Positions 29,116 through 53,343 are shown, numbered from the stretch's first letter. The stretch: 64,000 bases of DNA from Armatimonadota bacterium (GCA_016869025.1 VGFA01000001.1:140309-204308); one strand, 5' to 3'. Numbers and translations are program-made. Notes: generated from the letters alone by a model not told the origin.

Positions 29116-29141
29116 CCCATTCCGGGCCGCGTGGTAGAATG
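29112..29141 (+). promoter_or_regulatory. Sigma-70-type promoter for rplU-rpmA
   Basis: TTGACC (29112-29117) is separated by 17 nt from TAGAAT (29135-29140), with an upstream TG extended -10 element. Confidence 0.6.
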
Positions 29142-29165
29142 CGTCGGGTTTGGTGGAGGTGGGAT

Positions 29166-29483: not shown

Positions 29484-29504
29484 GCAGAACCAGGGGGTAG
29501 GGAG

Positions 29505-29771: not shown

Positions 29772-29791
29772 CCCAACAGGTGCGCGCTTCT

Positions 29792-31611
<1,820 letters not shown>

Positions 31612-31660
31612 GCCCCGTCCGCGCCGCAAGGCGGCCGCGCCGGAGTCACTGCCCAAGGCC

Positions 31661-31975: not shown

Positions 31976-31982
31976 GCGGACG

Positions 31983-32855: not shown

Positions 32856-32878
32856 CGCCGCGCGATCCGCGTAGCGCG

Positions 32879-35323
32879 ATGAGGATTGCCAGGACCGCAT
32901 CCCTGGCCGCCCTGCTGCTGATCCTGGCGCTTCCCGCGGGCGGGGCTCCTGCTCCTGCTGTCCTCGACCGCCCCCCGGGTGAGTTCGAGCTGCCGTACTC
33001 TCCCGCCGACGGCGCGGTGGTCTCTATCACGCCGCCGGGCTTCGTTTGGATTCCGGTTGCGCGGGGCGCGCGGTATGCCCTGCAGGTGGGGCCGGCCCTG
33101 GATCCGGCCGGGCCTGGGGGCCGAACGGTCCGCGGGATCACGATGGCGTCGCACGCCCCGCGCGAGGTCCTCGCCCCGGGCCGCTGGGCCTGGCGTTACG
33201 GCGTCGAGTCCTCCGATGGCACCGTCGCCTGGAGTCGCGCCCGGGCTTTCACCGTGGGCCCGGACGCGCGCCCCTGGCCCTATCCAGGCGTGGACGCCAT
33301 GGCCGGCCGGGTACCACGGGGCCGGCCGCGTCTGTTCGTGCGCGCCGAGGAGGTGGCCGCCTACCGGGGTCGCGCGCGGGACGGCGACCTCCGGACTCTG
33401 GCGGCCGGGATCGTGCGCTTGGCCGAGCGCGACCTGGGCGGGTCGCTGCCTCCGGAGCCGGATTTCCTGCCGCGCACCCAGCCAGACCGGGGCCGCATCT
33501 TTGCCGAGATCATCCGCACCACGCGGCCGCCGATGGACGCCATGGAGCGGGCTGCGCTGGCCTACCTGCTAACCGGCGATGCGCGCTTCGCCGATGAGGC
33601 GCGGCGCCGGCTGCGGCACTTTTTCTCCTGGGACCCGCTGGGACCGACGGAGCTGGCGCACAACGACGAGCCGGCGATGTGGATGATGATGCGCGGGGTG
33701 AGGGCCTACGATTGGATACACGACAGGATCCTGCCCGAGGAACGTGAGGCGATCGAGCGCGTCATGCGGGTCCGCGCCGAGCAGATGCACCAGGTGTTGC
33801 GACGCCGGCCTTTCGAGAGTAACCCCTACGAGAGTCACGCCGGCCGTATCATCGGGTTCCTGGGCGAGGCTGCGCTCGCGTTCGTCCACGAGTGGCCCGA
33901 GGCGCGCGACTGGCTGGATTACGTGGCCACCGCCTATTGGACCTCCTATCCGGCATGGGGCGGTGACGATGGCGGTTGGGCCGAGGGCCCGGCGTACTGG
34001 GGTTCGTACATGAACTTCATGCTGCACTTCGCGGTGGCGCTGCGGACCGGCGCGGGCGCAGACATAATGGGCAAGCCGTTCTTCGCCACCACGCCGTTGT
34101 ACGCCGTGTACACGGCCCCGCCCTACCACCGGCTGGCACCGTTCGGGGACGGCCAGCACAGCCGTATCGAGCTGGGCAGTCTCATGTATTGGTTCTCGTC
34201 GGTGCTGCGCGATCCGGTGGCGCGCTGGTATGCAGAGGCGCGCCAGCGCGGGCCGAGCCAGGACATTCTGGGGGTCGTTTTGGCGGACGCGACGCTGGCA
34301 GGTCGGCCTCCGACCGCGCTACCCCAGAGCCGTGTCTTTCCATCGGTGGGCCTGGTCGCCATGCACAGCGCGCTGGGCGACCCGGACAACGACATCTACC
34401 TGCTCTTTCGCAGCAGCCCTTACGGATCGCACAGCCACGGACACTCCAACCAGAACGCGTTTGCCATAGAGGCCTACGGCGAAGCACTGGCCATTGCTTC
34501 CGGGTACTATCCATGGTACGCGTCGCCGCACCACGACATGTGGACGCGCGAGACCCGGGCCTCGAACGCGATTACGATCAACGGCGGTCAGGGGCAGGGG
34601 AAACGCAGCATCCGGGCGCGCGGGAGGATCGAGGCGTTCGCCACCGGCGGCGGCTACGACCACGCCTCCGGCGACGCCACTCCTGCCTACGAGGGCCGGC
34701 TGCTGCGCGCGGTGCGCCGGATCGTGCACGTGCGCCCGGGCGTGTTCGTAATCTATGACGAGGTCGCCGCGCCCGGGCCGGTCACCTGGGAGTGGTGGCT
34801 GCACACACTCTCGCGTGTGGAGGTGGACGAGGGCTCTGCCGAGATTCGGGTACGCGAGGCGAAGGCAGGGATGGTCGTGCGTTTCCTGGATCCGGTCGGC
34901 CTTGCGTTCGCGCAGACCGATCGCTTCGCCGTGCCGCCCGAGGACGGGCGGCCCAACCAGTGGCACCTGACCGCCTCGACGCGGTCGGCGCAGTCCAGCA
35001 CGGTCTTCCTGGCGGTGCTCATGCCGCACCGGGCCGGTGATACGGTCGGGCTCCCGCGCGTATCCAGGGTTGAGGGGGAGGGCGCGCTGGGCGTCGCCCT
35101 GGCGTGGCCTGACGGCCGCCGAGATCTGGTGGGCTTTCGCAGACCGGGTCGTACCGAGGCCGTCAGGCTCGAGGCGATCGAGGCCGATGCCGCGGCCTTC
35201 GCGGTGGGCACGGCCCCCGGAGGTGTCCTGCGGCGCTGGCTTATCGGGCAGGGGCGCCGCCTGACCCTGGGTGAAAGGGATCTGGCGCCGGGGGGCCCGG
35301 ACCGCACGGCCACCTGGCCTTGA
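32879..35323 (+). CDS. Secreted heparinase II/III-like (polysaccharide-lyase-like) protein
   Basis: 814 aa with an N-terminal signal peptide. The central (alpha/alpha) toroid-like region is followed by a C-terminal beta region with an SHSHGHSNQNAFAIEAYGE motif, as in the Hepar_II_III family. Confidence 0.6.
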   Translation: MRIARTASLAALLLILALPAGGAPAPAVLDRPPGEFELPYSPADGAVVSITPPGFVWIPVARGARYALQVGPALDPAGPGGRTVRGITMASHAPREVLAPGRWAWRYGVESSDGTVAWSRARAFTVGPDARPWPYPGVDAMAGRVPRGRPRLFVRAEEVAAYRGRARDGDLRTLAAGIVRLAERDLGGSLPPEPDFLPRTQPDRGRIFAEIIRTTRPPMDAMERAALAYLLTGDARFADEARRRLRHFFSWDPLGPTELAHNDEPAMWMMMRGVRAYDWIHDRILPEEREAIERVMRVRAEQMHQVLRRRPFESNPYESHAGRIIGFLGEAALAFVHEWPEARDWLDYVATAYWTSYPAWGGDDGGWAEGPAYWGSYMNFMLHFAVALRTGAGADIMGKPFFATTPLYAVYTAPPYHRLAPFGDGQHSRIELGSLMYWFSSVLRDPVARWYAEARQRGPSQDILGVVLADATLAGRPPTALPQSRVFPSVGLVAMHSALGDPDNDIYLLFRSSPYGSHSHGHSNQNAFAIEAYGEALAIASGYYPWYASPHHDMWTRETRASNAITINGGQGQGKRSIRARGRIEAFATGGGYDHASGDATPAYEGRLLRAVRRIVHVRPGVFVIYDEVAAPGPVTWEWWLHTLSRVEVDEGSAEIRVREAKAGMVVRFLDPVGLAFAQTDRFAVPPEDGRPNQWHLTASTRSAQSSTVFLAVLMPHRAGDTVGLPRVSRVEGEGALGVALAWPDGRRDLVGFRRPGRTEAVRLEAIEADAAAFAVGTAPGGVLRRWLIGQGRRLTLGERDLAPGGPDRTATWP

Positions 35324-35368
35324 CGCCGGCTGCTCGGGCAGGGGCGGCTTCCCGCGTGGGCGAAGCCA

Positions 35369-35644
35369 GTGGTAACCATGAGCGACGCGCTACGCCTCGC
35401 GGTTCTGATTGTTTCCCTGGTGACCCTTGCGACCACAGTGCGCCAGCACGCGGCCTATCTGGGCGGCCGTCGGCAGGGAGGGTTCTTCGCCCACCTGGAG
35501 ACCGCCGGCTGGCTTATCCTCACCCTTGCCTTTGGGGCGACGGCGTTCCGCCCGGATCTGTGGATCCTGGGGGTCAGCACGGCGCCCGTCGGGGCGCTGT
35601 GCATCCTGGTCCGTTCCATGCTGAGGGCCCTCGGCCGTGCCTGA
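35369..35644 (+). CDS. Small two-TM membrane protein of unknown function
   Basis: 91 aa hydrophobic ORF overlapping the smpB start. Confidence 0.4.
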   Translation: MVTMSDALRLAVLIVSLVTLATTVRQHAAYLGGRRQGGFFAHLETAGWLILTLAFGATAFRPDLWILGVSTAPVGALCILVRSMLRALGRA

Positions 35645-36137
35645 GCGCAGTGACGAGAAGCTGATAGCCACAAACCGCCAGGCCCGGCACGAGTACCACA
35701 TCGAGGAAACGGTCGAGGCCGGCCTGGTGCTCACCGGCACCGAGGTCAAATCGCTGCGGGGCGGTCGCGTCACGCTGGGCGAGGCGTTTGCGCGCGTGGA
35801 GCGCGGCGAGGCGTGGCTGCTCCACCTGCACATCCCGCCCTACGACGCCGGTAACATCTTCAACCACGACCCGCTGCGGCCGCGCAAGCTGCTGCTCCAC
35901 CAGCGCGAGATCCGGCGCCTGGCGGAGGCGGCCGCGCGGAAGGGGTACACACTCGTGCCGCTGCGCCTGTACTTCCGCAGGGGCAGGGCCAGGGTCGAGC
36001 TGGCGCTGGGACGCGGGAAGAAGCTCTACGACAAGCGCGAGGCGATCGGGCAGAGGGAAGCACAGCGCCAGGCGCAGCGCGCAGTGAAGCAGCCGGTCGA
36101 GCCGCGCGCTCGCAGGAGAAAGGGAGAGGGCGGATGA
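35637..36137 (+). CDS. smpB: SsrA-binding protein SmpB
   Basis: It has the motifs [12 protein letters not shown] and GTEVKSLR. 166 aa. Confidence 0.95.
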
Positions 36138-36634
36138 CACAGGCTTGGGGCCAGGGACCACTCGTTGGCATCATCATGGGCAGTACCTCTGACCGGCCGG
36201 TCCTTGAGGCAGCGGTCGAGATCCTAACCGAGATGGAGATACCGCACGAGGTCAGGGTAGTCTCCGCGCACCGGACGCCCGACTGGATGTTCGAGTACGC
36301 GGCCGCCGCTGAACGTCGCGGCATCAAGGTGATCATCGCCGGCGCCGGCGGCGCCGCGCACCTGCCGGGTATGACCGCGGCCAAGACCGTACTGCCGGTG
36401 ATCGGCGTGCCGGTGCCCAGCGAGCACCTGCGCGGGCTGGACTCGCTGCTCTCGATCGTGCAGATGCCCGCCGGCGTGCCGGTGGGCACGATGGCGATCG
36501 GCCGCGCAGGCGCGGCGAACGCCGCGTTGCTGGCAGCGCGCATCCTGGGTCTTTGCGATGAGGCGATCCGCGAGCGGCTGCGGCGCCGCCAGGAGGAGCA
36601 GGCAGCCGCCGTGCTGGAGGCAGGCGGCGGATGA
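36134..36634 (+). CDS. purE: N5-carboxyaminoimidazole ribonucleotide mutase
   Basis: It has the motifs [10 protein letters not shown] and [10 protein letters not shown]. Confidence 0.95.
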
Positions 36635-37836
36635 GAGTCGGCGCAGCGGTGCCCCTGCTGCCCGGCGCAACGATCGGCATCGTCGGCGGCGGGCAGCTCG
36701 GCCGCATGCTGGCGTTGGACGCCCGGCGGATGGGCTACGGCGTGGCAGTTCTTGATCCATCCCCGGCGGCCCCGGCTGCGGCGCTGGCCGATGCGCACGT
36801 CCAGGCTCAGTTTGACGACGTCGGTGCGGTCGCCGATCTGGCGGCACGCTCGGACGTGGTGACGTTTGAGCTCGAGCACGTGCCGCTCGACTGCGCGCTG
36901 GCCGCGGCAGCGCGGCGGCCGGTTCGGCCTTCGAGCCAGGTCCTGGCGGCCTGCCAGCACCGCATACGGGAGAAGCAGTTCCTGCGTGAGCACGGGTTTC
37001 CGACTGCCCCCTGGCGCCAGGCCGGCTCTGCCGAGGAGATCGAAGAGGCGGTCGCCGGCCTCGGTCTGCCCTGCGTGGTGAAGATCCCCTTCTTTGGCTA
37101 CGATGGGCGCGGGCAGGTGCGCGTCGCGTCGCGAAACGATCTTCCGGCGGCCGCTACGCTGGGGTTCGAACGCGGGCCTCTGGTCGTGGAGCGGTACATT
37201 CCTTTCGCGAGCGAGGTCGCGGTCGTTGTCGCGCGCGGGATGGACGGCGGGCGGCGCGTCTACCCGGTCGTGCGCACGGTACACGACGACGGAATCCTGG
37301 TGGAGGTGGTGGTGCCGGCGCAGGTTCCTGCCACGGTTGCCGATCGGGCAGCCGGCATCGCCGAGTCCATAGCCACGGCGCTCGACCTCGTCGGCGTCCT
37401 TGCGGTCGAGATGTTCGTGATGGATCGCGGCGAGGTGCTCGTGAACGAAATGGCGCCGCGTCCCCACAACTCAGGCCACTACACGATCAACGCCTGCCCC
37501 ACGTCGCAGTTCGAGCAGCACGTACGCGCGATTTGTGGGTTGCCGCTGGGTGGCGCTGGCCTCCTGGCTTCGGCGGCGATGGTGAACCTGCTGGGTGACC
37601 GGCAGGGCCCGGTCCGGCTCGCCGGGGTCGAGGAGGCCCTGGCCGTGGCCGGGGTCTCTCTGCACCTCTACGGGAAGGGCGAGGCGTGGCCCCGGCGTAA
37701 GATGGGGCACATCACCGCGCTAGGGGAGACCGCCGAGGAGGCGCTGGACCGCGCGCGGCGCGCGGCGGCGATGCTCCGATGGGAGCCGGTCGCGTTATCG
37801 CAGCCGCCCCGGGGGTTGCACCTCTCCGGCGTGTGA
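36631..37836 (+). CDS. purK: N5-carboxyaminoimidazole ribonucleotide synthase
   Basis: It has an ATP-grasp fold and lies downstream of purE with an ATGA overlap. Confidence 0.9.
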
Positions 37837-37841
37837 GGGGC

Positions 37842-38933
37842 ATGCCCGCCCGCATCCTTACGGTCGACCCCCAGGCGCCCGGTGCCGCGGCTATCGGCGA
37901 GGCGGCCGCGGTTCTCTCTGCGGGCGGCCTGGTCGCCTTTCCCACCGAGACGGTCTACGGCCTGGGCGCCGACGCCCTGAACCCGCGCGCGGTGGAGCGC
38001 ATCTACGCCGCGAAGGGCCGCCCGGTTGACAACCCGATCATCGTGCACATCGCCGATCCCGGCGCCCTGGGCGGACTGGTTGGCGACGTGCCCCCGGCCG
38101 CGCAGATCCTGATAGCGCGCTGCTGGCCGGGTCCGCTTACCCTTGTGCTGCCGGCCGCGCCGGTGGTGCCTTCCGTGACGCGAGGCGGACTGCCGACGGT
38201 GGCCGTGCGCATACCCGCGCACCAGGTGGCGCTGGCCCTGATCCGCGCAGCCGGGTGCCCTGTGGCCGCGCCCAGCGCGAACCGGTCGGGCCGACCCAGC
38301 CCGACCACGGCGCAGCACGTGCTTGCCGACGTGGGTGGGTCGGTTGAACTCGTGCTCGACGGCGGTCCAACGCCGGTGGGAGTAGAGTCCACAGTGCTCG
38401 ACCTCACATGCGATCCGCCGGCGCTCCTGCGACCGGGCGGGGTATCGCTGGAACAACTTGTGGCGATCGTCGGTCAGGTGACCGTTCCCGTGCTGGGTGC
38501 CGCCGCGGCAGGCACCGCTGCGCCGGAGGTGCAGGCCGCGCTGGCGCGCTCGCCTGGCACGCGGTACCGCCACTACGCGCCGCGGGCAAGGGTGGTGCTG
38601 GTGGAGGCCCTGCCGGAGGTACCGCCGGAGGAGGCCGGTGCCGCGCAGCCCGCCGCCGAGCTGTCCGCGGCCGTGCGCCGGCTGTGGGACGAGGGTCTGC
38701 GCGTCGGCGTCATGGTGACAGTCGAGGCCGCTTCCAGAGTTCCCGAGGGTGCGGTCGTGCGGGTGATGGGACCGCGCGCCGATCCTGCGGCCGTGGCCGC
38801 CAGGCTGTTCGCCCTCCTGCGCGAGCTCGACGACGCAGGTCTCGATGCGATCGTGGTGGAGGGGATTCCTGAGCAGGGACTGGGCAGGGCGGTGATGGAC
38901 CGGCTGCGCAGGGCGGCAGGCCAGGCCGGGTGA
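37842..38933 (+). CDS. tsaC: L-threonylcarbamoyladenylate synthase, long Sua5-type (YrdC domain plus Sua5 C-terminal domain)
   Basis: It has the motifs FPTETVYGLGADA and KGRP, and is 363 aa long. Confidence 0.9.
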   Translation: MPARILTVDPQAPGAAAIGEAAAVLSAGGLVAFPTETVYGLGADALNPRAVERIYAAKGRPVDNPIIVHIADPGALGGLVGDVPPAAQILIARCWPGPLTLVLPAAPVVPSVTRGGLPTVAVRIPAHQVALALIRAAGCPVAAPSANRSGRPSPTTAQHVLADVGGSVELVLDGGPTPVGVESTVLDLTCDPPALLRPGGVSLEQLVAIVGQVTVPVLGAAAAGTAAPEVQAALARSPGTRYRHYAPRARVVLVEALPEVPPEEAGAAQPAAELSAAVRRLWDEGLRVGVMVTVEAASRVPEGAVVRVMGPRADPAAVAARLFALLRELDDAGLDAIVVEGIPEQGLGRAVMDRLRRAAGQAG

Positions 38934-38943
38934 GCCCCTGCCA

Positions 38944-38953
38944 TGGTATAATA
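38944..38953 (+). promoter_or_regulatory. Extended -10 promoter element (TGGTATAAT) for ssrA
   Basis: It lies about 34 nt upstream of the mature tmRNA 5' end. Confidence 0.55.
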
Positions 38954-38985
38954 AGCGTGCTTGGTCGTAGCCGCAGCCAGAATGT

Positions 38986-39335
38986 GGGGGCGATCGGTTT
39001 CGACTGGGTGGGAAGCAGCAGAGCTGCGAGCCGAGGTGGTCAGGTCCTCGTTAATCAACTGGCAGGCGCACAAACGCCAACACACAGTACGCACTCGCCG
39101 CTTAAATAGCGTCGACGCTCACCTGGTAGGGCCGGCGGCCCGGGCTGAGCGCCACAAGCCGGCTACCGTCGGGCGTCCTGGCCCGGGACGCGCGATGGGA
39201 ATCCCAACGGGCTGGCAGCTGGAGCATCCGGTCTGCGGGAGGCTCCGGCAGCGAGATCCAAAGCGCAGACTACGCTCGTAGACGCTCCGCCCTCATCCAC
39301 TCAGGACGCGGGTTCGATTCCCGCCGCCTCCACCA
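38986..39335 (+). ncRNA. ssrA: tmRNA (transfer-messenger RNA, SsrA)
   Basis: The 5' GGGGGCG pairs with the 3' CGCCUCC-A-CCA, including the G3·U70 alanine identity pair. The 3' T-arm is GGGUUCGAUUCCC. An internal tag reading frame at 39076-39105 encodes ANTQYALAA*. smpB lies 3 kb upstream. Confidence 0.95.
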
Positions 39336-39348
39336 ATCGTCCTTTAGC

Positions 39349-39372
39349 CAGGACGCGGGTTTCCGCCCGCGT
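39349..39372 (+). terminator. Rho-independent-type terminator hairpin for ssrA
   Basis: GACGCGGG-tttccg-CCCGCGTC followed by a T-rich stretch (attggttttggt). Confidence 0.6.
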
Positions 39373-39680
39373 CATTGGTTTTGGTGGCAACTGGGTGGCA
39401 GACTTTGACGTGTGGCGGGGTCGCAGCAAATGCCCGTGGACGGACTGACAGCACGGGAATCGGCTCCTCGGGTACGAGGGCGGCACAGGATCGTCGGCCA
39501 TGATCGAGTCTCGACCCTGTTCTCGGTGAGACGCCTCCACTCAACGACTCGGTGGACATCCCGGAAGAGAAGCCGGTGACACTCTAGGCAGTGCCCCGCC
39601 AGCGGATGCGGTCAGGTCATCAGGTTCTGGGACGACTCCTGGGGCCTAGCGTCGTACCGGCCGGAGCCATGATCTCAGGC

Positions 39681-39718
39681 GCGTATCAAGTGGCGTATCA
39701 GGTGATACGCCGATACGC
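39681..39718. promoter_or_regulatory. Nested direct/inverted repeat operator-like site
   Basis: gcgtatca-agtg-gcgtatca-gg-tgatacgc-c-gatacgc. The core GGCGTATCA-GG-TGATACGCC is a perfect 9-bp inverted repeat with a 2-bp spacer. Confidence 0.45.
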
Positions 39719-39792
39719 TTCCCAGAGAGCCGTCGGCGTATACTTCGCCCCCAACTGGCCAGGCACCGCGACGGTAGCTACCCTTCATGAGA

Positions 39793-40089
39793 TTACGCGA
39801 CGAGCCGCGCCCATATGATGAGAAGCCAGTGAGCGAACCCCAGGATCGCAAGCACGAGACCGGCAAACCCAAGCCTAGACGTTGTCCAGTCCTTCACTCT
39901 AGCCGCGCCGATGATTGCGGCGATCCCCGCAAGGGCGCCGAAGAGCGCTCCGAAGAGCCACACGGATCCCATCAGATCGCATCCTAGAGCGTACGGGTCG
40001 GTACGGACACAGCGCACGGAGGCTACCAGACCAGTAGCGTCAGACGCCACTGAGACGAAACCGACCAGTCTCCACATCTCGGCACTCAT
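39793..40089 (-). CDS. Small membrane protein, island paralogue A
   Basis: 98 aa with two or three TM helices. A C-x3-DP-x4-C motif is shared with the next gene. It is preceded by the conserved leader element. Confidence 0.5.
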   Translation of the reverse strand: MSAEMWRLVGFVSVASDATGLVASVRCVRTDPYALGCDLMGSVWLFGALFGALAGIAAIIGAARVKDWTTSRLGFAGLVLAILGFAHWLLIIWARLVA

Positions 40090-40128
40090 GCGCGCTTGCC
40101 TCCTCGGGTGTGGTCACAAGACGCCCCA
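40090..40128 (-). promoter_or_regulatory. Conserved leader element, short copy A (RBS-proximal part)
   Basis: On the minus strand the leader reads ggggcgtcttgtgaccacacccgaggaggcaagcgcgc-ATG, matching copies B and C. Confidence 0.55.
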
Positions 40129-40179
40129 ACACCTAGCGTTGCTGCAGACCTGCGCACAAGAACAGGCCGGCACTCGCAA

Positions 40180-40398
40180 TCAGGCCCAAAGCGACACTGC
40201 CCTGGCGCGGGTCCGGCCTTTTCGCCCATGCCGGATGGCCAACGACCCCAGCACTACGGCGAGGAGGTTTGTGATCGTTGGAGGCAGCAGATGCAATGGG
40301 ACGGCAAAGGCGCAGATCGGGTCGTAGGAGCGGCAGTCTCCTGTCACCGCCGCATAGGCTGCACCCATCAAGCCGAACCCGAGCGCCCACGCCTTCAT
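40180..40398 (-). CDS. Small membrane protein, island paralogue B
   Basis: 72 aa with GDCRSYDPICAF followed by a TM helix. It is preceded by the long leader copy B. Confidence 0.5.
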   Translation of the reverse strand: MKAWALGFGLMGAAYAAVTGDCRSYDPICAFAVPLHLLPPTITNLLAVVLGSLAIRHGRKGRTRARAVSLWA

Positions 40399-40486
40399 AG
40401 CACTCGCCTCTTCGGTTATCAGACAATAAGACGCCCCGGCCCCTCGGGAACGGCGAGGCGTCTGGTATGGGGGCCGGGCTACCGGC
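40399..40486 (-). promoter_or_regulatory. Conserved structured leader element, long copy B
   Basis: It is about 80% identical over 88 nt to 41616-41706. It contains the pairing AGACGCC/GGCGTCT and CCGGCCCC/GGGGCCGG (pseudoknot-capable). It ends in GAAGAGGCGAGTGCT-ATG. Confidence 0.6.
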
Positions 40487-40787
40487 TATCTACGGCGACC
40501 GTTCGTCAGAAGGGGCTGCCGCCTCCTCCAATCGTGTCTGTCCCTCCCGGCATGGTTGACGCCCCTCGGCGCCCGGCCGACAGGTTGTCGAGCGTGCTCG
40601 CTCTTCGGAACTTGACGAACACCTCCGCCTTTGTGAGGTGCGCGTGTTGGCTGACCATGGCGAGGCTCCCAAGGACAGTACCACAGCACAGAAGCGCCGC
40701 CCGACAAGGCAAGCCTACGCGGCGTGGCAGCCCTTGCCGGACAGCCCTGCCACACGCCGCAGCAGCTTCGGCGCTGAGAGCACGCAT

Positions 40788-41615
40788 CTAGCGTTTCGGG
40801 GCGAAGCGCAGAAGTAGAACACGGCCAGCCTGATCCGGCGCGTTCGTCACCTGCCACGCGTCAGAAAACACACGCACCTCGCCACCTCTCAACGTCTGTT
40901 CGCGATGCCCAGAGAGTCCGACACGCACACTTCCAGAGATCCCAATGATGACCATGGGCTGGTCACTGGAGATGAATGTCCCCACATCCCAGTTTGGTGG
41001 GTAGCGACCGATGGAAATGCGGTAAAGCCAGACCGTGTGGGCTCCACTACTCAGTCCCACTGCTGCAACTGCAAAGGTCCGATATTCCGACGGGAGCGCG
41101 GAAGCAACGTCAGCACCCAACGTAATGAGGCAAAGTCTGGTCCTCAATGTCGAATGCCAGTCATGCGTGTGCTCGGCCCCGTCCGGTATCCACGCGGCCT
41201 CGCCGCTGACATGGTCGCTCGTTCGCCCCGCTATCGTCAGCAGATTGAGCCCCTCCACCGTGTACTCCCAACCCATCGCGTGGCTGTGGGTTCGGACGGA
41301 GGCGCCCGGCTCAACCACGAGTTCACTGACCTTGATGTTTGTGGGGGCGGCCGGCAGAATCGCCTCTTGCTGACCCAGGAGTTTGGTTTCAGGGCCGACG
41401 ATGATGAGTTGAGCCAAAGCATCGCTCGGGGCCAGTGCACCAGGGACGTTCTGTGCCCCGGTCATTTGTACGTAGCCGTCAGTGGTCACGCCCAGCGTCC
41501 ATTCTTCAATGCGCTGGCCCGGCACGATGAGGTTGTCGTCAGGAGCCTGCGCAAAGCCGGGCACCGACAGGGCGAGGGCAACGAACAGAAGCAGGACATA
41601 CGCAGTGGTCTTCAT
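40788..41615 (-). CDS. Secreted bicupin-domain protein
   Basis: It starts with the MKTTAYVLLLFVALALSVPGFA signal peptide. It has two cupin-like beta-barrel halves. It is preceded by leader copy C. Confidence 0.55.
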   Translation of the reverse strand: MKTTAYVLLLFVALALSVPGFAQAPDDNLIVPGQRIEEWTLGVTTDGYVQMTGAQNVPGALAPSDALAQLIIVGPETKLLGQQEAILPAAPTNIKVSELVVEPGASVRTHSHAMGWEYTVEGLNLLTIAGRTSDHVSGEAAWIPDGAEHTHDWHSTLRTRLCLITLGADVASALPSEYRTFAVAAVGLSSGAHTVWLYRISIGRYPPNWDVGTFISSDQPMVIIGISGSVRVGLSGHREQTLRGGEVRVFSDAWQVTNAPDQAGRVLLLRFAPKR

Positions 41616-41706
41616 CGCGCTCGCCTCCTCGGTTTCGGTCATTAGACAGCAAGACGCCCCGGCCCGCTGCGTGGGGCGAATCGCTCGGTACGGGGCCGGT
41701 ACCGGC
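41616..41706 (-). promoter_or_regulatory. Conserved structured leader element, long copy C
   Basis: See copy B. It contains the perfect palindrome GCCGGTACCGGC and ends in GAGGAGGCGAGCGCG-ATG. Confidence 0.6.
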
Positions 41707-41721
41707 GTGGCCGCATCGCAA

Positions 41722-42816
41722 TCATGGTTGCTTCAGAGTCAGCACCCAGATCTGCCACGGATCCTTCGCAAAGGCAATCCTCGCCCCATCTGGCGAAAAC
41801 GCTGCTCCACGGCCGGCGGTCAAGGATCGTGTCTGCGGCTCCGGCACGACGCCAGCGATGGCATCCGCGCTCGTCATGATCCAAAGAACGTCGCCGCGGC
41901 CGTAAACAATGAACTTGCCGTCGGGGGACACCACAGGTGCCATGTGGCCTTGGCCGGTGGCCACCGTGCGCAGTTCACGCGTGCGCGGATCCAACACCTG
42001 CAGATCGTTGGTAGATGACGAATCGATCACCTCCCGAGCATTGGCGACAAGAATGAACTTGCCGCTATCTCCGACGAAGCGTGGGGACTCAACGTTGCCG
42101 GGTCCCTCCCAGACCGACGACGCACCGGACCCATCCGCGTTCATGACATAGACACGACTGTTGCCGCTGGCACCGGCCCCGGAAAATACGATCTTCGTCC
42201 CGTCGGGGGACCACGACGGATCCCTCGCGCGACCCAGGTTCGTCAGTGCCCTGGCACCGCTTCCGTCCGGGTTGATCGTCCAGATCTCTTGGGTCCACCT
42301 CGGGGTGGGTCCCGTGACCAAGACGTCGAGCCCGACCGAACGATTGAAGATGATTCGACGACCGTCCGGAGACCACGACGGGTTGTCATTGTGTTCCCCG
42401 GCGGCCTGCCTGGTGAGGCGCCTGGGAGATTGTCCCTGGATACCCACGACCCAGATGTCCGAGGGGTGGAACTTGAGCCCCGGACGGTCAGGGAGCCTGC
42501 TAACTTCACCAATGCGACTGAACGTGATGGTCTGGCCGTCCGGAGACCAGCTCACCGATCCGTACCTGGATCCCGGCGATCCACTGCCCACATCGCGCTG
42601 GAGAACGAGAGTCGCGTCCCCTGGTTCTGGCAAGGGGCTCTGACCAGCGAGCGGATGCGCCAACAGGGTGACGGCGATGACCGCTGCAAGAAGCAAATTG
42701 ATCGCAAACAGGCGCCATCCCCCGGAGCGACAGCCACGTTCCTTCAGCGGGTTCCCTGGCAGCTTCCCTCCAAGACCTAAGCAGCCACCGTTACTGGCCA
42801 TCTCCGTACCTCCCAA
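41722..42816 (-). CDS. Membrane-anchored TolB-like (PD40/WD40-like) beta-propeller protein
   Basis: It has an N-terminal TM segment and repeated SWSPDG / SPDG blades (SWSPDGQTITF, SWSPDGRRIIF, SWSPDGTKIVF, SPDGKFIVY, SPDGARIAF). Confidence 0.7.
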   Translation of the reverse strand: MGGTEMASNGGCLGLGGKLPGNPLKERGCRSGGWRLFAINLLLAAVIAVTLLAHPLAGQSPLPEPGDATLVLQRDVGSGSPGSRYGSVSWSPDGQTITFSRIGEVSRLPDRPGLKFHPSDIWVVGIQGQSPRRLTRQAAGEHNDNPSWSPDGRRIIFNRSVGLDVLVTGPTPRWTQEIWTINPDGSGARALTNLGRARDPSWSPDGTKIVFSGAGASGNSRVYVMNADGSGASSVWEGPGNVESPRFVGDSGKFILVANAREVIDSSSTNDLQVLDPRTRELRTVATGQGHMAPVVSPDGKFIVYGRGDVLWIMTSADAIAGVVPEPQTRSLTAGRGAAFSPDGARIAFAKDPWQIWVLTLKQP

Positions 42817-42885
42817 CTCCGATCGTCTTGCCGGTTCAGGTCCCCGGAGCCGTCATGCCGCCTTCATGCCCTTTCCCACAGAGCG

Positions 42886-43326
42886 CTATCGACAGTTGGG
42901 ACGTTCACAGCGCCACCAGATCGGGATGAGGACCGTGTCATCGAGCACCTTCTGCTCTACGTCCCTGAAGAGACGAATGCCGTCGTAGACGTCTCCGACC
43001 GATCGTGGCCGGTCGATCAGCGCTCGAGCCCGACCGATGAGGGCGTCCACGTCGGGATTCGCGTAACCGAAGATGTTCAGTGAGCCTTTCGAGTGGGCGA
43101 GAAGTTCAAGCAGGCTGCGCACCCCCACGACGAGGATGTTCAGCCCTGTGTCCTCCGTACAGGCGTTGGTGAACAAGGCCACGTAGAAGAGGTGGATCGC
43201 GGAGGAGCGCACGACGCTGGCGTCACCACCGGTCCGCACCGTAACGCGAAAGCCGAGCTCGCGAAGCTCACTCACGAAATCGTCCGCACCGGCGAGACCT
43301 TCGTTCACCCACAAGCTCACCGGCAC
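42886..43326 (-). pseudogene. Remnant (C-terminal about 30%) of a family-5 ABC substrate-binding protein
   Basis: The 146-aa ORF matches only the C-terminal region of Opp/Nik-type binding proteins (NIFGYANPDVDALIGRA...VLIPIWW). There is no signal peptide or N-terminal lobe. Confidence 0.5.
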
Positions 43327-43455
43327 GTCACTGGGCTTGATGCCTCTGTTCTCAATCGCCTGCTTTGCGGCGGCGAGATCATAAGGCTGCGGCCTCGGTA
43401 GGACCGAATTCTCGACGCACTGCGGAGGTACGATGCCCCGGGCGCGCGAGGCGGC

Positions 43456-43881
43456 GTGTGGGCGCTCGCCGGCAGCACAGTCAGCAGCCGCGCTCCCGAT
43501 GCCCCTTCGCCAGCCGCATCTGCTGAGGAGATGCAGCGCATCGTGACCCGCGCCCGGGCGATGGTGGGCACCGGCCTGACGGCTGTCGTCGGGTGGATGG
43601 CTCTTGGATTGGCGGGGAGCATCCTTGTCGGCTCCCTGCGCACTGCGGCGCTGGCCGTCCTCGTCGGCGCCGCTCTGATAGGGCGTGGCATGCCCGATGC
43701 TGTGTTGTTCGGCACGCCCGCGTTTCTTGTCGCTCTGGGAGGCATGGTCGGCGGAATGCTGGGTCGGATGCAGCAGGCCTGGCTGGGCCGGCCCTGGTGG
43801 GATTTCGTGGGAGGAGCCGTTGGGGGAGCCATCGGATTGGTGGTGGCCCTTGTCCTCCGTTTCCTGTACAAGCTCGGCTGA
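43456..43881 (+). CDS. GlsB/YeaQ/YmgE-like glycine-zipper membrane protein (tandem)
   Basis: It has Gly-zipper TM repeats (GWMALGLAGSILVG; GGAVGGAIGLVVAL). The real start may be the ATG at 43564. Confidence 0.45.
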   Translation: MWALAGSTVSSRAPDAPSPAASAEEMQRIVTRARAMVGTGLTAVVGWMALGLAGSILVGSLRTAALAVLVGAALIGRGMPDAVLFGTPAFLVALGGMVGGMLGRMQQAWLGRPWWDFVGGAVGGAIGLVVALVLRFLYKLG

Positions 43882-43907
43882 TCCGAATGGGTGGGAGGTG
43901 AGCAGTC

Positions 43908-44555
43908 ATGCGCTTGCTCGGAGCCATGCTGTTCGTTCTTGTGGGTGCGGCCACCCAGCCCAGTGCGCCCATCGCGCTGACAAACGTCTACCACTCGCTC
44001 GAAGGCCAGACGCTGGTCATCCACGGGATGGTGGAGAATCGGTCGGCCGCTTCCTTGGGACGCCTTGTCATCGACGCCACCGGACTCACGCCGTCCGGAA
44101 GCGCCGCCTACGGCGGGAGCGATGGGATCCCCTGGGGTGTGGCGCCGGGGAGGGACGAAGCGTTCTCCATCAACCTGTTTCTCACCGGACAGCTCGTGCG
44201 CGAGTATGTGGTGCGGGTGGCGCTCGCCAGCGCTCCCAACCGCCCTCTGGCGAGCGTCCGGCGCAGTGCCGACGGCTCGCTCTACCGGCCGCTGCTCATG
44301 TCCGTCGTGCGGCTTCGGGGAGCCGTCAATGGCGATCTCCTCAGCGTGCGCAGCGACGCGGGCGGGTGGCCTGTTGCACAGGTCACCGTTGAGGCCGTGC
44401 TACTCGTTCCTGGCCATCACGCGCCCCACCTCCGGCGACTGGTCCTGGATGTACCCGCGGACGGCGAAGGCCGGATCCGGCACGGGCTCGCCGGGGCCGA
44501 ACTGGTGGGCCTGCGGGTGGTGGACGTGCGTCCGAAGGTGCTCTGGGAGGACTAG
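43908..44555 (+). CDS. Secreted hypothetical protein
   Basis: 215 aa with an MRLLGAMLFVLVGAAT signal peptide and two beta-rich halves. No known motif was found. Confidence 0.4.
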   Translation: MRLLGAMLFVLVGAATQPSAPIALTNVYHSLEGQTLVIHGMVENRSAASLGRLVIDATGLTPSGSAAYGGSDGIPWGVAPGRDEAFSINLFLTGQLVREYVVRVALASAPNRPLASVRRSADGSLYRPLLMSVVRLRGAVNGDLLSVRSDAGGWPVAQVTVEAVLLVPGHHAPHLRRLVLDVPADGEGRIRHGLAGAELVGLRVVDVRPKVLWED

Positions 44556-44773
44556 GAACCACCGGCGATGGCTGTAATGCCCTGGACACAGGGATTTCGG
44601 GGCCCATGTCGAATATGTCTCCGGAATCCAGTGCAGCAGATTCACGGGAGGTGTTCCCGCACGGCTGCTGCTGAACGTAGCGGCCGGCGGATGTCCAGGG
44701 CCGTCGCTCCAGAACGCCGCGACCACGCATAGCGAAGGGCACGAACCGCACGCGGTGGCCCCGGGGGTCGGCA

Positions 44774-47700
44774 ATGCGGTGTCCTTCCTGCGGTCATGAG
44801 CGGACGTCGCCGCACCTGCGGTGCAGCAACTGCTCTGCAACCTTCCCGCGCGAACTCCTCGAACGATACGATCGTCTGACCTTCCTGCTCGGCGTGGTCT
44901 CGGATTGGGAGCGCGCCGGGCGGATCTCCGAGTCGGCCCGTGCTGAAATCGCGGAACCCTGTCTGAGGGAACTGGAACGGGTCGAGCAAGAGCTCGGCGT
45001 GCGCGCCGCGCCGCCGGTTCCTGAGGCGCTTGTGGTGCCCGTCCCGGTTGCGCCTGTCCCGCCGGCGCCGACCGTCGCCCATGGGCTGATCCCCGCGGCA
45101 CCCGCATCGTCCGTCCCGCCGGAGGGGGCTCTCCCGGAAGGCGGCCCTCCGGAGGTGGCTCCGTCCCCCCCGCGTCCCCTGATCCCTCGGATCTCCTGGG
45201 AGGATGTCTGGCGAGGGCTTCTCTCTGAACGGTCGCTCGAGGTGCTCCTGTTCGCCGGCGCGGTGCTGATCATCGCCGCGGCGGGAACGTTCGTGTACTT
45301 CAACTGGGGACGGTTCCCCCCGGCGCTGCAACTGCTCTCCCTGATCGTAGGCACGGCGTCGTTCTTCGTCGGCGGCTGGCTGCTCCGCACGCGCTGGAGG
45401 TTGACGCAGTCCGCGCCGGCGCTGGTGGGCATCGGAGCTTTCATCGTTCCGGTGGACTTCTACGCGTGGGCCCGCTTCCGCGATGTCCCACCGTCCGCCT
45501 ACGCGGCCCTGTGGTGCACGGCGTCAATCTGCTGCGGGGTTGTCTATGCGGCAACCACCTGGTGGCTGCGCCACTGGTTCTTCTGCGTGCTGCTCCTGCT
45601 GGCCGCCCACAGCCTGGCGCTCGCGGTGCTCTTCCTGCTGGGCGTCCCACCGGCATGGTGGGGAGCGGTCGCGGCGGCGCTCGCCACGGTGTGGATGGTT
45701 CTGAGGCCCCGGTTCTCCCTGGCCGGGCCGGGGTCCGAGCAGGCGGCCACAGGCGTCTCGATCGTCGCGGCGGTGCTGGGCGTGGCGGTACCGGCGCTTC
45801 TCCAGGCCGAGAAGTGGGGCACCCTGTTTGACGGCACAAGCCCCGCGGGCGCCTGGATCCTGCCGGTGGCGGCGGCGGTGTGGATGGGCGCGGTGTTTCT
45901 GTTTGCATTCCACCGGCGTCTGCCCTCCGGCGACGCCGCGACGCTGGCGGCGCTGACACCGGCGGTCGCCGTGGTGATGACCCTCCTGCCGATGATGACG
46001 CGGCCGTGGGTGAGCCTCGGCATCCTGATTCTCGCCGCGGTGTATGTCGCCCTCGAGGACCGCGTCCTGGGGTCGCTGGCCCCGGCCATGCGCGGGACGG
46101 CCATCGGAGCGTCGCTGGTCGCCGTCGCCTGGTCTTTGATGGATCGTGTCACCGCCGCGGTCGTCGTACTCGCGGCGTCGGCGCTCTACGCCTGGTGGGC
46201 GTTCGAGTTTCGGCGGCCGGTGGTGCTCATCGCCGCGCAGATCGCCGCGCTCGTGGGACTGCTGTACGCGCTGGCCGTCGCCCGCGTCGCCGTGGGGTAC
46301 TGGCCTCTCGCCGGTCTCGCGGTCGCCGCGGTCAGTCTCGCGGGCACCGTCGCGGCGCGCGCGGCGCCCGGTTTCGCCAGAGTCCTGTATGTCGGTGCGT
46401 ACGTCTTCCCGGTACTCGGCATCGTCGCCACCGTCGATGTGAAGGCACCTGCGCTGGTGCTCACCACCTTGCTCGGCGGTGCGCTCGCCATCGCGGTCTA
46501 CTCAGCAGTTCTGGTGCACCGGGGCAGCGATCCGGCGCTGAGCGCGCTCGCGGCGCGGCTGCCGGCGGGCGGCGGCCTGCTCTTCCAGTGGGTGGCCGCC
46601 GCTTTGGCCGCCGCTGAGGTGGCGGTCGCGTGGCTGTGGTGGCGTCCGGTGCCCCATGGCTTGGCCGCCGCATGGCTGACGCTCGGCACGGGATTCGTCC
46701 TGATCGGCCGGCGCTTGAGGCACATCGACCCGCGCTATCTCCGTCCGTGGGCGGCTTCGGCTCTGGTGCTCAGCACGCTGGCGACGGTGCTCGCCCTGGT
46801 CGTGGAAGTTCGCGCACCGCTCATCTACACGCTGCTGCTGGCGACGGTGACTTCGGCACTGTGGGCCTGGCTGCTTCGGTCTCCATGGCTCGCGTATGTC
46901 GCCGCCGGGCTCCTACTCGTGCCGTTTGGGCTTGCGCTGCCCGATGCCGTGGCACATGGTCTCATCCCGTCCAGGGCGGCCTACACCTGGCTCATCGCCT
47001 CACTGGGCGCGGTCTATCTGCTTGCCGGTGTGATCCTGGATCGCTCTGAACCCCGATTCGGAGCACCCGTGCACCTCGTCAGCCACCTCTTGATCCCGTT
47101 CTCGCTCGTGTGGGTGCTGCAGGAGCCGCCGCTCGGCCTGCAGACGCTGGCCATCGCCGTCGCGTTCTATGTCGCGTCCGCACGGCTGGTGCACGAGGGC
47201 CGGCACCCGACGGTGATGAGCCTGATTGACCGTCTCACGCAGACGGCCCCGGGTGCCGCGCCACCGCTGCGGGCCATATTCGTCTATGTGTCGGCCTGGC
47301 TGTTCCCGTTCTGGTTTGAACTCGCCGCGTCACGCGTCCCTGCGGTTCGCGAAACGCGGGCGTTTCTTGGCGTCACTGCCGCAGCGCTGGCGTGGGCCTA
47401 TCTAATGGTCGGACAGTGGATACGGCGGGCGAATCCCGCGTACGTGCCACCGTTCAGGATCGCCGCGCAGGCGCTGGTCATCGCCGGCGGTCTGCTGGCC
47501 GTCGAGCACCGCCCGCTGCTCCTTGGGGCGGTCGCGCTCGGCGCAGGGCTGCAGGTGGCGCTGTACGCCCTGTCGGGCCAGACGGTGTGGGTGTACACCG
47601 CGGCCCTGGGAGGCGCGGGCTGGCTGGGGTTGGCGCTCAACCACCTGCATTTCCACTCGGCTCCCGCGGGATGGGTGATGATCCTGCTCGGGATTGGGTA

Positions 47701-49405
47701 CGTCGGTCTTGCCGAGGTCAACTGGCGCCGGACCGCGACGCGCGACGTCCCACCGGTATCGGCCGCCCTCCTGGCGGTGGCGTTCCTGGTCGTGGTGATC
47801 GGCATCCTGCTCACCGCCCTGCGGGTACCCGAGAATGCCTGGGCCGCGTACGCGGTCAGCGCGCTGCTCTTCCTCTGGTGCGGGTGGCGGCTGCGTGAGC
47901 CGCTGCTGGGATACCCGGCGGCGGGTCTGGCCGCGGCGACCTACGTCGCCGTCCAGACCACCCTGCTGAAGGGCACAGGTGCGTCCACTGCGCACCATGG
48001 CGTGGCGCTGTTACCCGGGGTGGCGGTGTTCTTCGCCGTTGCGTGGGCGCTCGATCGACGCGCCGCTGCCGCAGGGCCGCCCTCCCAGAAGGGCGCGTGG
48101 AGTACCCCGATGGACGCGGCGGCGCAGATCGGCATGCTCGTGGCAGTCGTCTTTGCCTCAACGCACCGCTGGCTGTTCCCTGCATCGCTGGGGCTCGCCG
48201 CTGTGCTCTACGGACTATCGGCCGTGCGATTCCGCCGGCCTGTGCTGGTGTACGCGGCACTGCTGGCCGCCCTCGCCTCGGCGTTGTTCGCGTTGCTGCA
48301 GGCACCCATTGCGCCTCGATACATCCCCGTCGCCTTCGTACCGGTCGCCTGGGCGCTGGCCTTCATTGGCTGGCGCACGGAGGCGGTGCACAGCCGTCAG
48401 GCCCTGTTCACAATGACGTGGGCCCAGCCGTGGCATGTGGCGGCCCTCGCCACTGTGGCGCTGTGGGAACTCGTGGGGATGATCGAGGCCCGCGCCCAAC
48501 TGCTCACGTCGTTGGGCTTCGCGGCGCTCCTGTGTGCGTACGCGTTCCGGTGGCGGGAGTGGAGCGCCGCGACTGCGGCGCAGGTGCTTGTGGTGCTGGG
48601 CATCGGCGGCGGTCTCCGCTGGCTGCAGGTGACGTATCCCGCCTGGCTCGCGGCCGCATCGCTCACTGCGCTGGCCTTCGGCGTCCTGTCGGTGATCCTG
48701 GGTGTCCTGCGCAGGGGAGCCTTGTGGCAGACGGGCGCGCGCGGGCTGGCCCACGTGCTGGCCGCCGGCGCGCTCGTGTGGGCATTCTTGGGCGTCGTCG
48801 CGGCGGTGCACGCGAAGGCCGGAGAAGGTCTGGTCTACACGCTGGCCATCGTGGGCCTGCTCTACCTGCTGCTCGCCATCAAGGACCGGCAGGAGTGGCT
48901 CGGCTACCTCGCCGTCGCCATGCTGGAACTCGCCTGGGGTCTCTTCTTGCTGCGCAGACTTCAGGTGACCGAGATCCAGGCGTACGCGATTCCCTCATCG
49001 CTATATCTCCTCGGCATAGGGGTGGTGGAGCGACGGATGCGCCGGCCGACGCTCGCGCGGTTCATCGAGGTCGCGGGCCTCATTCTGCTGCTGGGCTCTG
49101 CGTTCTGGCAGTCCGTGACCGGCGGAGGGTTCTGGTACGCGGTTCTGCTGGCGGTCGAGGCGGTCGCGGTGGCCTGGGCCGGCGCGGCGTGGCGCCTGCG
49201 TCACTACTTCTTCAGCGGCATCGGGATGCTGCTGGTGAACGTCGTCGCCCAGGTCATCGATCCCCTGCGTGCGCTCGACAAGACGATCTTGTTCCTATCG
49301 CTTGGCGTGCTGCTGGTGCTCATCGCGGTGGCCGCGGAACGCAAGCGGGAGGCGATCATTCGGACCACGCGCGAGTGGCGCTCGCGGCTGGAGGCATGGG
49401 AGTGA
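44774..49405 (+). CDS. Giant polytopic membrane protein with N-terminal zinc-ribbon and Pro-rich linker
   Basis: 1543 aa. The N-terminus is CPSCGH-x12-CSNC, followed by a P/A/V-rich linker, then about 40 predicted TM helices with internal repeat units (Y..W.FRRPV motifs recur). The C-terminus overlaps the next gene by 10 nt. Confidence 0.7.
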   Translation: MRCPSCGHERTSPHLRCSNCSATFPRELLERYDRLTFLLGVVSDWERAGRISESARAEIAEPCLRELERVEQELGVRAAPPVPEALVVPVPVAPVPPAPTVAHGLIPAAPASSVPPEGALPEGGPPEVAPSPPRPLIPRISWEDVWRGLLSERSLEVLLFAGAVLIIAAAGTFVYFNWGRFPPALQLLSLIVGTASFFVGGWLLRTRWRLTQSAPALVGIGAFIVPVDFYAWARFRDVPPSAYAALWCTASICCGVVYAATTWWLRHWFFCVLLLLAAHSLALAVLFLLGVPPAWWGAVAAALATVWMVLRPRFSLAGPGSEQAATGVSIVAAVLGVAVPALLQAEKWGTLFDGTSPAGAWILPVAAAVWMGAVFLFAFHRRLPSGDAATLAALTPAVAVVMTLLPMMTRPWVSLGILILAAVYVALEDRVLGSLAPAMRGTAIGASLVAVAWSLMDRVTAAVVVLAASALYAWWAFEFRRPVVLIAAQIAALVGLLYALAVARVAVGYWPLAGLAVAAVSLAGTVAARAAPGFARVLYVGAYVFPVLGIVATVDVKAPALVLTTLLGGALAIAVYSAVLVHRGSDPALSALAARLPAGGGLLFQWVAAALAAAEVAVAWLWWRPVPHGLAAAWLTLGTGFVLIGRRLRHIDPRYLRPWAASALVLSTLATVLALVVEVRAPLIYTLLLATVTSALWAWLLRSPWLAYVAAGLLLVPFGLALPDAVAHGLIPSRAAYTWLIASLGAVYLLAGVILDRSEPRFGAPVHLVSHLLIPFSLVWVLQEPPLGLQTLAIAVAFYVASARLVHEGRHPTVMSLIDRLTQTAPGAAPPLRAIFVYVSAWLFPFWFELAASRVPAVRETRAFLGVTAAALAWAYLMVGQWIRRANPAYVPPFRIAAQALVIAGGLLAVEHRPLLLGAVALGAGLQVALYALSGQTVWVYTAALGGAGWLGLALNHLHFHSAPAGWVMILLGIGYVGLAEVNWRRTATRDVPPVSAALLAVAFLVVVIGILLTALRVPENAWAAYAVSALLFLWCGWRLREPLLGYPAAGLAAATYVAVQTTLLKGTGASTAHHGVALLPGVAVFFAVAWALDRRAAAAGPPSQKGAWSTPMDAAAQIGMLVAVVFASTHRWLFPASLGLAAVLYGLSAVRFRRPVLVYAALLAALASALFALLQAPIAPRYIPVAFVPVAWALAFIGWRTEAVHSRQALFTMTWAQPWHVAALATVALWELVGMIEARAQLLTSLGFAALLCAYAFRWREWSAATAAQVLVVLGIGGGLRWLQVTYPAWLAAASLTALAFGVLSVILGVLRRGALWQTGARGLAHVLAAGALVWAFLGVVAAVHAKAGEGLVYTLAIVGLLYLLLAIKDRQEWLGYLAVAMLELAWGLFLLRRLQVTEIQAYAIPSSLYLLGIGVVERRMRRPTLARFIEVAGLILLLGSAFWQSVTGGGFWYAVLLAVEAVAVAWAGAAWRLRHYFFSGIGMLLVNVVAQVIDPLRALDKTILFLSLGVLLVLIAVAAERKREAIIRTTREWRSRLEAWE

Positions 49406-53330: not shown

Positions 53331-53343
53331 AGGGGGCGATAGC

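Follow-up and report, generated by a model that had tools for sequence, protein, structure and literature searches.

The window analyzed here is a stretch of 64,000 nucleotides (nt) from an Armatimonadota bacterium (GCA_016869025.1, VGFA01000001.1:140309-204308). On its plus strand it carries ssrA, the gene for transfer-messenger RNA (tmRNA), at 38986 to 39335; the gene was recognized by ARAGORN and by Rfam (RF00023, 165 bits) and specifies the tag ANTQYALAA. ssrA is followed by a block of low G+C (GC) content, about 39374 to 43445, in which every gene lies on the minus strand and which therefore runs convergently with ssrA, as the initial annotation of the window had claimed. From ssrA outward, the block holds the genes of two small hydrophobic proteins, an exported protein with a weak cupin domain, and a beta-propeller protein, and it ends in a truncated SBP_bac_5-like gene. 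It forms the ssrA-proximal module of a longer variable segment that reaches to the gene of an M20 metallo-hydrolase. We consider it highly probable that the block is specific to this species and was acquired, and that it lies in an ssrA hotspot. With moderate confidence, we further read the block as a decayed, immobilized island remnant in that integration hotspot and not as a working member of it.

The locus was compared with related Armatimonadota genomes (five genomes in all, the window included), whose backbone identities to the window range from about 70% to 90%. A genome scan with Sua5 gave one usable relative among 80 loci, and a metagenome scan with DUF2157 gave one short contig. The left backbone, from Obg to the cluster smpB-purE-purK-sua5-ssrA, is common to four related genomes. 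In the sister genome (GCA_031082185.1; L001), a single 12.7-kb alignment of 89.6% identity ends at window position 39335, the last base of ssrA; beyond ssrA, this genome has genes for a 547-amino-acid (aa) membrane protein, an alpha-2-macroglobulin and VanW, all of normal GC. Similarity to L096 (GCA_964615245.1, about 80% identity) ends at 39336, so that in blastn both of these breakpoints fall at the end of ssrA, which anchors the hotspot. L096 rejoins the window 0.7 kb past ssrA, at ArsR (51863 to 52381) and ACR3 (53587 to 54637, 86.6%), and another contig of the same genome begins at the M20 hydrolase gene. The L099 contig opens within ssrA, of which it has the final 28 nt at 100% identity to the window, continues with an SBP_bac_5 ABC transporter and joins the M20 backbone after 3.7 kb, at window position 55912. 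In the outgroup, L011, the backbone is about 70 to 73% identical and ssrA about 89 to 91% identical. Here, a reverse-strand, phage-type tyrosine integrase abuts ssrA (Pfam Phage_integrase, 2e-13, plus a SAM-like domain; phrog_1, 8e-51). It is part of a 2.4-kb islet of lower GC that also encodes a LuxR-type regulator and an open reading frame (ORF) of 146 aa, after which the core pentose-phosphate genes begin. Past ssrA, GC falls below that of the backbone in L096, L011 and L099 but not in L001. None of the four relatives has the genes of the block at this locus, and each has different DNA there, which is the pattern of presence and absence and of broken synteny that characterizes an island. 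Since the flanks are shared and the content differs, the backbone can be written as ssrA, a variable interval and the M20 gene, with a different filling in every genome.

These alignments also fixed the limits of the variable segment. It extends over 16.6 kb, from 39336 (breakpoints against L001 and L096) to 55911; the breakpoint on the right lies at 55912 against L099 and at 55938 against L097, which matches the window from there onward. The initial annotation had confined the island to 39336 to 43455, and the region over which the relatives differ is four times larger. Its left edge also had to be moved. A terminator scan located, on the plus strand at 39349 to 39383, an intrinsic terminator that consists of the hairpin GACGCGGG-TTTC-CGCCCGCGTC and a T-run. 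The hairpin (39349 to 39373) recurs in L011 and L099 with a conserved stem and a different spacer, although the content downstream differs, and is therefore the native terminator of ssrA; it is missing in L001 and L096. Foreign DNA begins only after this terminator, 38 nt past ssrA, and not at 39336 as annotated, a position that is nonetheless immediately adjacent to a tmRNA gene, as expected of an island. The first 13 nt of the terminator, CAGGACGCGGGTT at 39349, coincidentally repeat T-arm sequence. They were considered as an attachment (att) site and ruled out, because they are the 5' arm of the conserved hairpin. The next 409 nt (39384 to 39792) hold no gene, RNA family or integrase remnant detectable with Pfam on all ORFs, Rfam, or tblastn with the L011 integrase; the counterpart of this stretch in L011 is the integrase.

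Two further features of the ssrA region were noted in the relatives. smpB lies about 3 kb upstream of ssrA (window 35637 to 39335), and the cluster smpB-purE-purK-sua5-ssrA is kept also in L001, L011 and L096; the two partners in trans-translation thus are genetically linked in this clade. In L001, ARAGORN called a second, permuted tmRNA (tmRNA*) at 12623 to 13289, overlapping the true end of ssrA. This call is probably spurious, because the ssrA tail is not repeated there.

The composition of the block was assessed in a sliding-window calculation. GC over 39336 to 43455 is 62.9%, compared with a window mean of 68.3% and a standard deviation (sd) of 1.6% among 4.1-kb windows, and the lowest of all 4.1-kb windows starts at 39301. 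In the flanking backbone, GC is 69.6% to the left of the block and 69.3% to its right. The dip that had been annotated as a fall from 70% to 58-62% is therefore real, with an actual drop, from about 69.5% to 63%, that is slightly smaller. Codon usage agrees with it. GC at the third codon position (GC3) is 0.69 to 0.77 in block genes versus 0.80 to 0.90 in native genes, and GC at the first position (GC1) is 0.62 to 0.66 versus 0.70 to 0.78. The two large block genes have codon-usage distances of 0.187 and 0.188, about 2 sd above native genes (0.126 ± 0.029; native maximum, 0.208). By GC, GC3, GC1 and codon distance, the block thus has the composition unlike its host genome that is looked for in an island. 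The strongest tetranucleotide outliers of the window after normalization for GC are found outside the low-GC block, at 31001 to 35000 (z = 2.2), the region of a heparinase II/III-like gene, and at 45501 to 49500 (z = 2.5), in the DUF2157 gene.

Inspection of the genes of the block revealed that its cargo is exported or membrane proteins of rare families, nearly orphan. The 98-aa orphan (39793 to 40089, minus strand) has two hydrophobic helices that by inspection suggest a membrane location, and gave no match in Pfam, NCBIfam, PHROG or PADLOC. The 72-aa orphan (40180 to 40398, minus strand) is likewise a small hydrophobic protein. Both were in our ORF list and are called as genes in the JGI and NCBI records. 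They had been annotated as tiny paralogous membrane proteins, a relationship that the comparison of the two did not support (BLASTP E = 0.2). The third gene (40788 to 41615, minus strand) encodes a nearly orphan protein of 275 aa. Its annotation as a secreted bicupin stands as far as export is concerned, a signal peptide being predicted by inspection; the cupin label comes down to one match to Cupin_2, at 21.3 bits under a cutoff of 27.2. Only 2 matches to it were found among 5.8 billion proteins, and when 1.84 billion representatives were scanned in full with HMMER, the body of the protein was matched by only 2 proteins, at about 40% identity, while the remaining matches were restricted to the N-terminal 60 residues. 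Those residues, which comprise the signal peptide and the motif APDDNLIVPGQRIEEWTLG, are 45 to 62% identical to about 40 short proteins of 60 to 280 aa without a cupin body, which points to a modular N-terminal domain.

The fourth gene (41722 to 42801, minus strand) encodes a 359-aa PD40 (WD40-like) beta-propeller protein with an N-terminal hydrophobic anchor. The PD40 repeats (PF07676, 97 bits) bear out its description as a TolB-like propeller. It is not TolB of the Tol-Pal system: TIGR02800 scored 81 bits against a cutoff of 343 bits, and only the PD40 repeats are common to both. At the right edge lies the remnant of an SBP_bac_5-like gene (42886 to 43443, minus strand), close to the right boundary that had been annotated for the island. 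The homolog P0059 (PF00496, 60% identity) aligns to window positions 43443 to 42886; its first 67 residues, the signal peptide included, have no counterpart in the remnant, which lacks an in-frame start codon before 43326 and has kept about 185 codons, all from the C-terminal part. The last gene of the block is therefore truncated, as the initial annotation had it, with the loss at its 5' end, and an intact SBP_bac_5 substrate-binding protein can be dismissed. On its own, the fragment gave no Pfam match. It is also not a relic of the SBP genes of L099, to which it has no similarity.

A repeat search and alignment further detected a leader of about 85 nt, composed of the stem-loop CCGGCCCC...GGGGCCGG, then GCGTCTT..TGTCT, then a ribosome-binding site. 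The leader is confined to the block. Only two full copies occur in the window, both on the minus strand, one upstream of the 72-aa gene (40393 to 40472) and one upstream of the cupin gene (41610 to 41695), and a partial copy lies upstream of the 98-aa gene (40091 to 40122). It folds no better than shuffled sequences and has no match in Rfam. With two copies, no significant fold and no Rfam match, neither a genome-wide repetitive extragenic palindromic element nor a structured RNA was retained as an explanation. An integron-like array of attC cassettes was also rejected: there are two full copies only, they stand upstream of genes and include the ribosome-binding site, and they have no distinctive fold. 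The R'' and R' core motifs of attC were absent by inspection, no dedicated attC model having been applied. The repeat may serve these genes as a common promoter or leader, or be the trace of a duplication.

Searches for a wider affiliation of the block gave no matches. The gaps at 39384 to 39792 and 40399 to 40787 yielded no Pfam match to a decayed gene. None of the block proteins matched a PHROG, and the block DNA matched nothing in 50,697 phage records or in a plasmid collection; the block thus lacks the marks of a prophage remnant. PADLOC found nothing among the proteins in 39793 to 49405 that would indicate a defence island. All of the block products look exported or membrane bound by inspection, and our guess is that the block is an envelope-associated accessory module.

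We next consider the mobility functions and repeats. No integrase, transposase or phage gene was found in 39336 to 55911 by Pfam on all ORFs and on gap ORFs or by PHROGs, and this part of the initial annotation was sustained also by tblastn with the L011 integrase, in which only window positions 39296 to 39469 matched. This match was examined as an integrase remnant beside ssrA and set aside, being explained by an ORF that runs through terminator and ssrA. The L011 integrase ORF itself (12081 to 13238, minus strand) reads through the terminator hairpin of ssrA and stops within ssrA (stop at 12081; ssrA end at 12123). A direct repeat of the ssrA end had likewise been reported as absent. This is correct for the outer boundary, but a copy inside the block had been missed: blastn-short detected GCCGCCTCCtCCAATCGT at 40518 to 40535 on the plus strand, a 17/18 direct copy of 39323 to 39340, that is, of the last 13 nt of ssrA and the next 5 nt. 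The match has an E value of 0.044; with up to 2 mismatches allowed, about 0.01 such matches would be expected in the window. Its local-alignment score is 31, while none of 598 control tiles scored above 26. The 18-mer is a candidate degenerate att core. It might be the right att site (attR) of a 1.2-kb islet or the boundary between tandem islets. The final 28 nt of ssrA recur without a mismatch in 61 viral contigs of IMG/VR, of which 10 encode a homolog of the L011 integrase within about 50 to 1,000 nt; no content is common to the 61 contigs and the block.

The block, then, has the position, variability and composition of an island and neither an integrase nor repeats at its outer edges, and it is on these grounds that we call it a decayed remnant and not a working member. 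We propose that the 3' end of ssrA would be, in this lineage, a hotspot for repeated insertion and replacement of foreign DNA, set in the backbone smpB-purE-purK-sua5-ssrA, variable interval, M20 hydrolase and PGA genes. By the usual logic of accretion, the ssrA-proximal low-GC block would probably be its youngest module. It would have been acquired horizontally, most likely through a tyrosine integrase of the L011 kind that recombined at the ssrA tip; we regard such integrase-mediated entry as somewhat favored over entry by other routes. The block would subsequently have lost the integrase and most att repeats, and a later rearrangement would have cut its right end and truncated the SBP-like gene, leaving what appears today as a fixed, immobile remnant. 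The truncated gene at the right end does imply at least one later rearrangement. We infer this order of events, and a single insertion event for the block is not supported as such. The earlier suggestion of an old, degraded accessory island accordingly holds for a foreign-looking, integrase-less block at the 3' end of ssrA; the extent and left edge given for it do not, and its supposed freedom from repeats does so only in part.

Several results weigh against a decayed, integrase-borne island. The block lacks the integrase by which an island is recognized, and no ssrA-tip repeat occurs at its outer edge (about 43445), at the boundary between the second and third modules of the segment (about 51500) or at the M20 boundary (55911). 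The 18-mer inside the block was noticed after the fact, and its significance after multiple testing is only moderate, at about 0.02 to 0.04. None of the relatives yielded a convincing attR or a further copy of the ssrA tip, and this includes L011 with its 2.4-kb islet. The conserved terminator hairpin separates ssrA from the block, and a crossover inside ssrA therefore requires that the incoming element brought a similar hairpin. No donor lineage was identified for the block. Finally, its tetranucleotide signature deviates only mildly once normalized for base composition (z about 1.0 to 1.3), and the compositional anomaly is therefore moderate and mostly a matter of G+C.

An alternative that accommodates some of these points is replacement through flanking homology. 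Without any site-specific recombinase, the interval between ssrA and M20 would be swapped for DNA of related strains through homologous recombination, anchored in the well-conserved ssrA at one end and in M20 or the backbone at the other, and the block would be cargo of such an exchange. The outer boundaries lack att repeats in all five genomes, and the variable DNA begins at the end of ssrA and stops at the ribosome-binding site of M20. ssrA, about 89 to 91% identical even to L011 over a backbone of about 70 to 73%, would make a good recombination anchor, and ACR3 (86.6%) and M20 (88 to 89%) are closer to their relatives than is the neighboring backbone (74 to 82%), although this higher identity may reflect stronger constraint. 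This explanation does not account for the internal copy of the ssrA tip or for the truncated gene. Moreover, the integrase of L011 stands exactly at the junction, related integrases lie by the same ssrA tip in viral contigs, and the identity profile against the sister genome L001 stays level as far as the breakpoint and shows no recombination tract. We therefore hold it to be unlikely, while giving it more weight than the other alternatives below. One of these is that the region is native and ancestral and has been lost or replaced in the relatives, its low GC resulting from the weak selection that acts on exported proteins which are seldom expressed and evolve fast. That the normalized tetranucleotide signature is no outlier and the codon distance stays within the native maximum of 0.208 is consistent with this, as are the native origin of the adjoining terminator, the lack of bounding mobility genes or att sites and the fixation of the block in its population. 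However, four relatives with backbone identities of about 70% to 90% lack the block and have other content in its place, no ortholog of the cupin protein above 40% identity occurs anywhere, GC1 and GC3 are both shifted, and the block ends in a truncated gene, so that a native origin is in our view improbable.

The possibility of a chimeric join of lower-GC DNA to ssrA, through an artefact of assembly or binning, was also considered: the window comes from a metagenome-assembled genome, conserved RNA genes are common assembly breakpoints, and the assembly of one sample is broken at 40168/40194. Independent contigs come close to refuting it. JGI sample 3300020109 yielded a contig that matches the window across 26631 to 47836 at 100% identity, and two contigs from sample 3300020198 (26631 to 40168 and 40194 to 55667, at least 99.9% identity) likewise cover both junctions. 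The cupin gene was found on 17 contigs from JGI, NCBI and Logan assemblies and in one context only; the block is fixed in the population. An artefact is thus extremely improbable. The break in sample 3300020198 (end of contig L004, start of contig L092) falls between the genes of the 98-aa and 72-aa proteins, inside the block, and might be due to heterogeneity among strains or to lower coverage.

A more speculative proposal, which we rate as rather doubtful, is that the interval between ssrA and M20 turns over without leaving att repeats, either by replacement anchored in ssrA or through a recombinase with a very short core, and that 39341 to 40535 would then be a trans-mobilized mini-element. 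Five genomes have five contents, similarity to the two closest relatives breaks off at the final base of ssrA, and attR was detected in none of the five. If it were true, this 1.2-kb stretch, with the genes of the 98-aa and 72-aa proteins, would be a miniature element that lacks its own integrase.

We compared the decayed ssrA remnant with systems already described. The closest described case is that of the tandem ssrA-specific islands of Dehalococcoides, in which repeats of the ssrA tip serve as bounds and some islands lack integration modules and are possibly fixed (PMC3146451). As in the window, these genomic islands form a plasticity region directly downstream of a single-copy ssrA, with several serial modules whose low-GC, strain-specific cargo breaks synteny, and the integration gene, where present, lies on the reverse strand beside ssrA, as it does in L011 (PMC3146451). 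The Dehalococcoides islands differ in having clear 20-bp repeats of the ssrA tip, whereas the window has one degenerate 18-mer and repeat-free outer boundaries. Their recombinase is a CcrB-like serine recombinase (DsiB), whereas the only integrase seen in the clade of the window, that of L011, is a tyrosine recombinase. The cargo of the two is unrelated. An integrase-less segment between att copies recalls the cis-mobilizable elements (CIMEs) and the island accretion that are discussed for the same system (PMC3146451). Provided that the 18-mer really is an att core, 39341 to 40535 would be such a segment, 1.2 kb long, with a further islet after it. In contrast to CIMEs, however, this segment is bounded by a copy that is only a candidate att core, no excised form turned up, and the block has a single fixed context across 17 contigs.

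The window also resembles the classical tRNA and tmRNA islands of tyrosine integrases in its target, the 3' end of ssrA, in the breakpoint at the end of the gene, in its atypical composition and in its variable presence. L011, with ssrA followed by a reverse-strand integrase, has the canonical form of that arrangement. Unlike classical islands and prophages, the block of the window has no integrase, no flanking pair of left (attL) and right att sites, and no phage or conjugation genes. The sublocations of integration are reportedly treated by Williams in NAR in 2002, and 'Traffic at the tmRNA gene' is said to be the subject of a report by Williams in J Bacteriol in 2003. Work on this topic is cited as reference 24 in PMC3146451. 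A third comparison is with hotspots of horizontal transfer flanked by core genes, as reportedly described by Oliveira et al. in Nat Commun in 2017. The interval between ssrA and M20 likewise has different accessory content in each genome and mostly lacks mobility genes. Such hotspots usually are defined statistically across many genomes, whereas here there are five genomes, with an integrase in one.

That foreign DNA enters genomes at ssrA is well known, and the present locus extends this to Armatimonadota, a poorly studied, uncultured phylum. The locus offers a base-resolved picture of a decayed ssrA site, with no integrase, almost no att repeats and a truncated boundary gene, at which several modules of unlike composition are stacked between two core genes. 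It also holds two warnings for annotation: a low-GC stretch taken alone misdefines the limits of an island, and the native-looking DUF2157-RDD-PrsW and ars modules of the segment are not to be taken as core genes. Nothing found here changes the understanding of ssrA islands, and the locus belongs to an already known kind of hotspot.

Beyond the low-GC block, the segment contains two modules on the plus strand. The first of these, module c (43456 to 51473), encodes a small membrane protein, a 215-aa orphan, a 1,543-aa DUF2157 zinc-ribbon membrane protein, an RDD protein and PrsW. The module resembles native DNA in composition (GC, 0.694; codon distance, 0.097). It does not follow ssrA in any relative, and its closest homologs outside the population are about 50% identical and stand in other contexts. 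The initial annotation had raised the idea that elsewhere ssrA might be followed directly by this zinc-ribbon membrane protein operon; this was so in no relative, the DUF2157 operon being itself variable. Further inspection of the 1,543-aa protein revealed an N-terminal CxxC...CxxC zinc ribbon. The DUF2157-RDD-PrsW trio is kept at about 47 to 50% identity on unrelated contigs (L093, L094 and L095), and a protein search returned no close ortholog of the set from close relatives.

Module d (51576 to 55230) comprises, according to the gene table of contig L092 and blastn against L096, genes for ArsR, ArsP, thioredoxin, ACR3 and a chromate transporter, and is partly common to L096, where it is found 0.7 kb past ssrA. 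ACR3 (window 53587 to 54637 versus L096 10069 to 11119) is 86.6% identical, compared with 79 to 80% for the shared backbone; the ars module may have been exchanged after the lineages diverged or may be under stronger constraint. The M20 metallo-hydrolase gene (55926 to 57284, plus strand) is the first of the conserved right-hand backbone. It is 88 to 89% identical to its counterpart in L097, and the genes after it are 74 to 82% identical (window 55938 to 58251). About 1 kb of the window, 57271 to 58251, is missing from L097 and L098, and L099 has extra genes there, for an aldo/keto reductase, a second SBP and URO-D. From these differences among L097, L098 and L099, it follows that the right-hand backbone also is somewhat variable.

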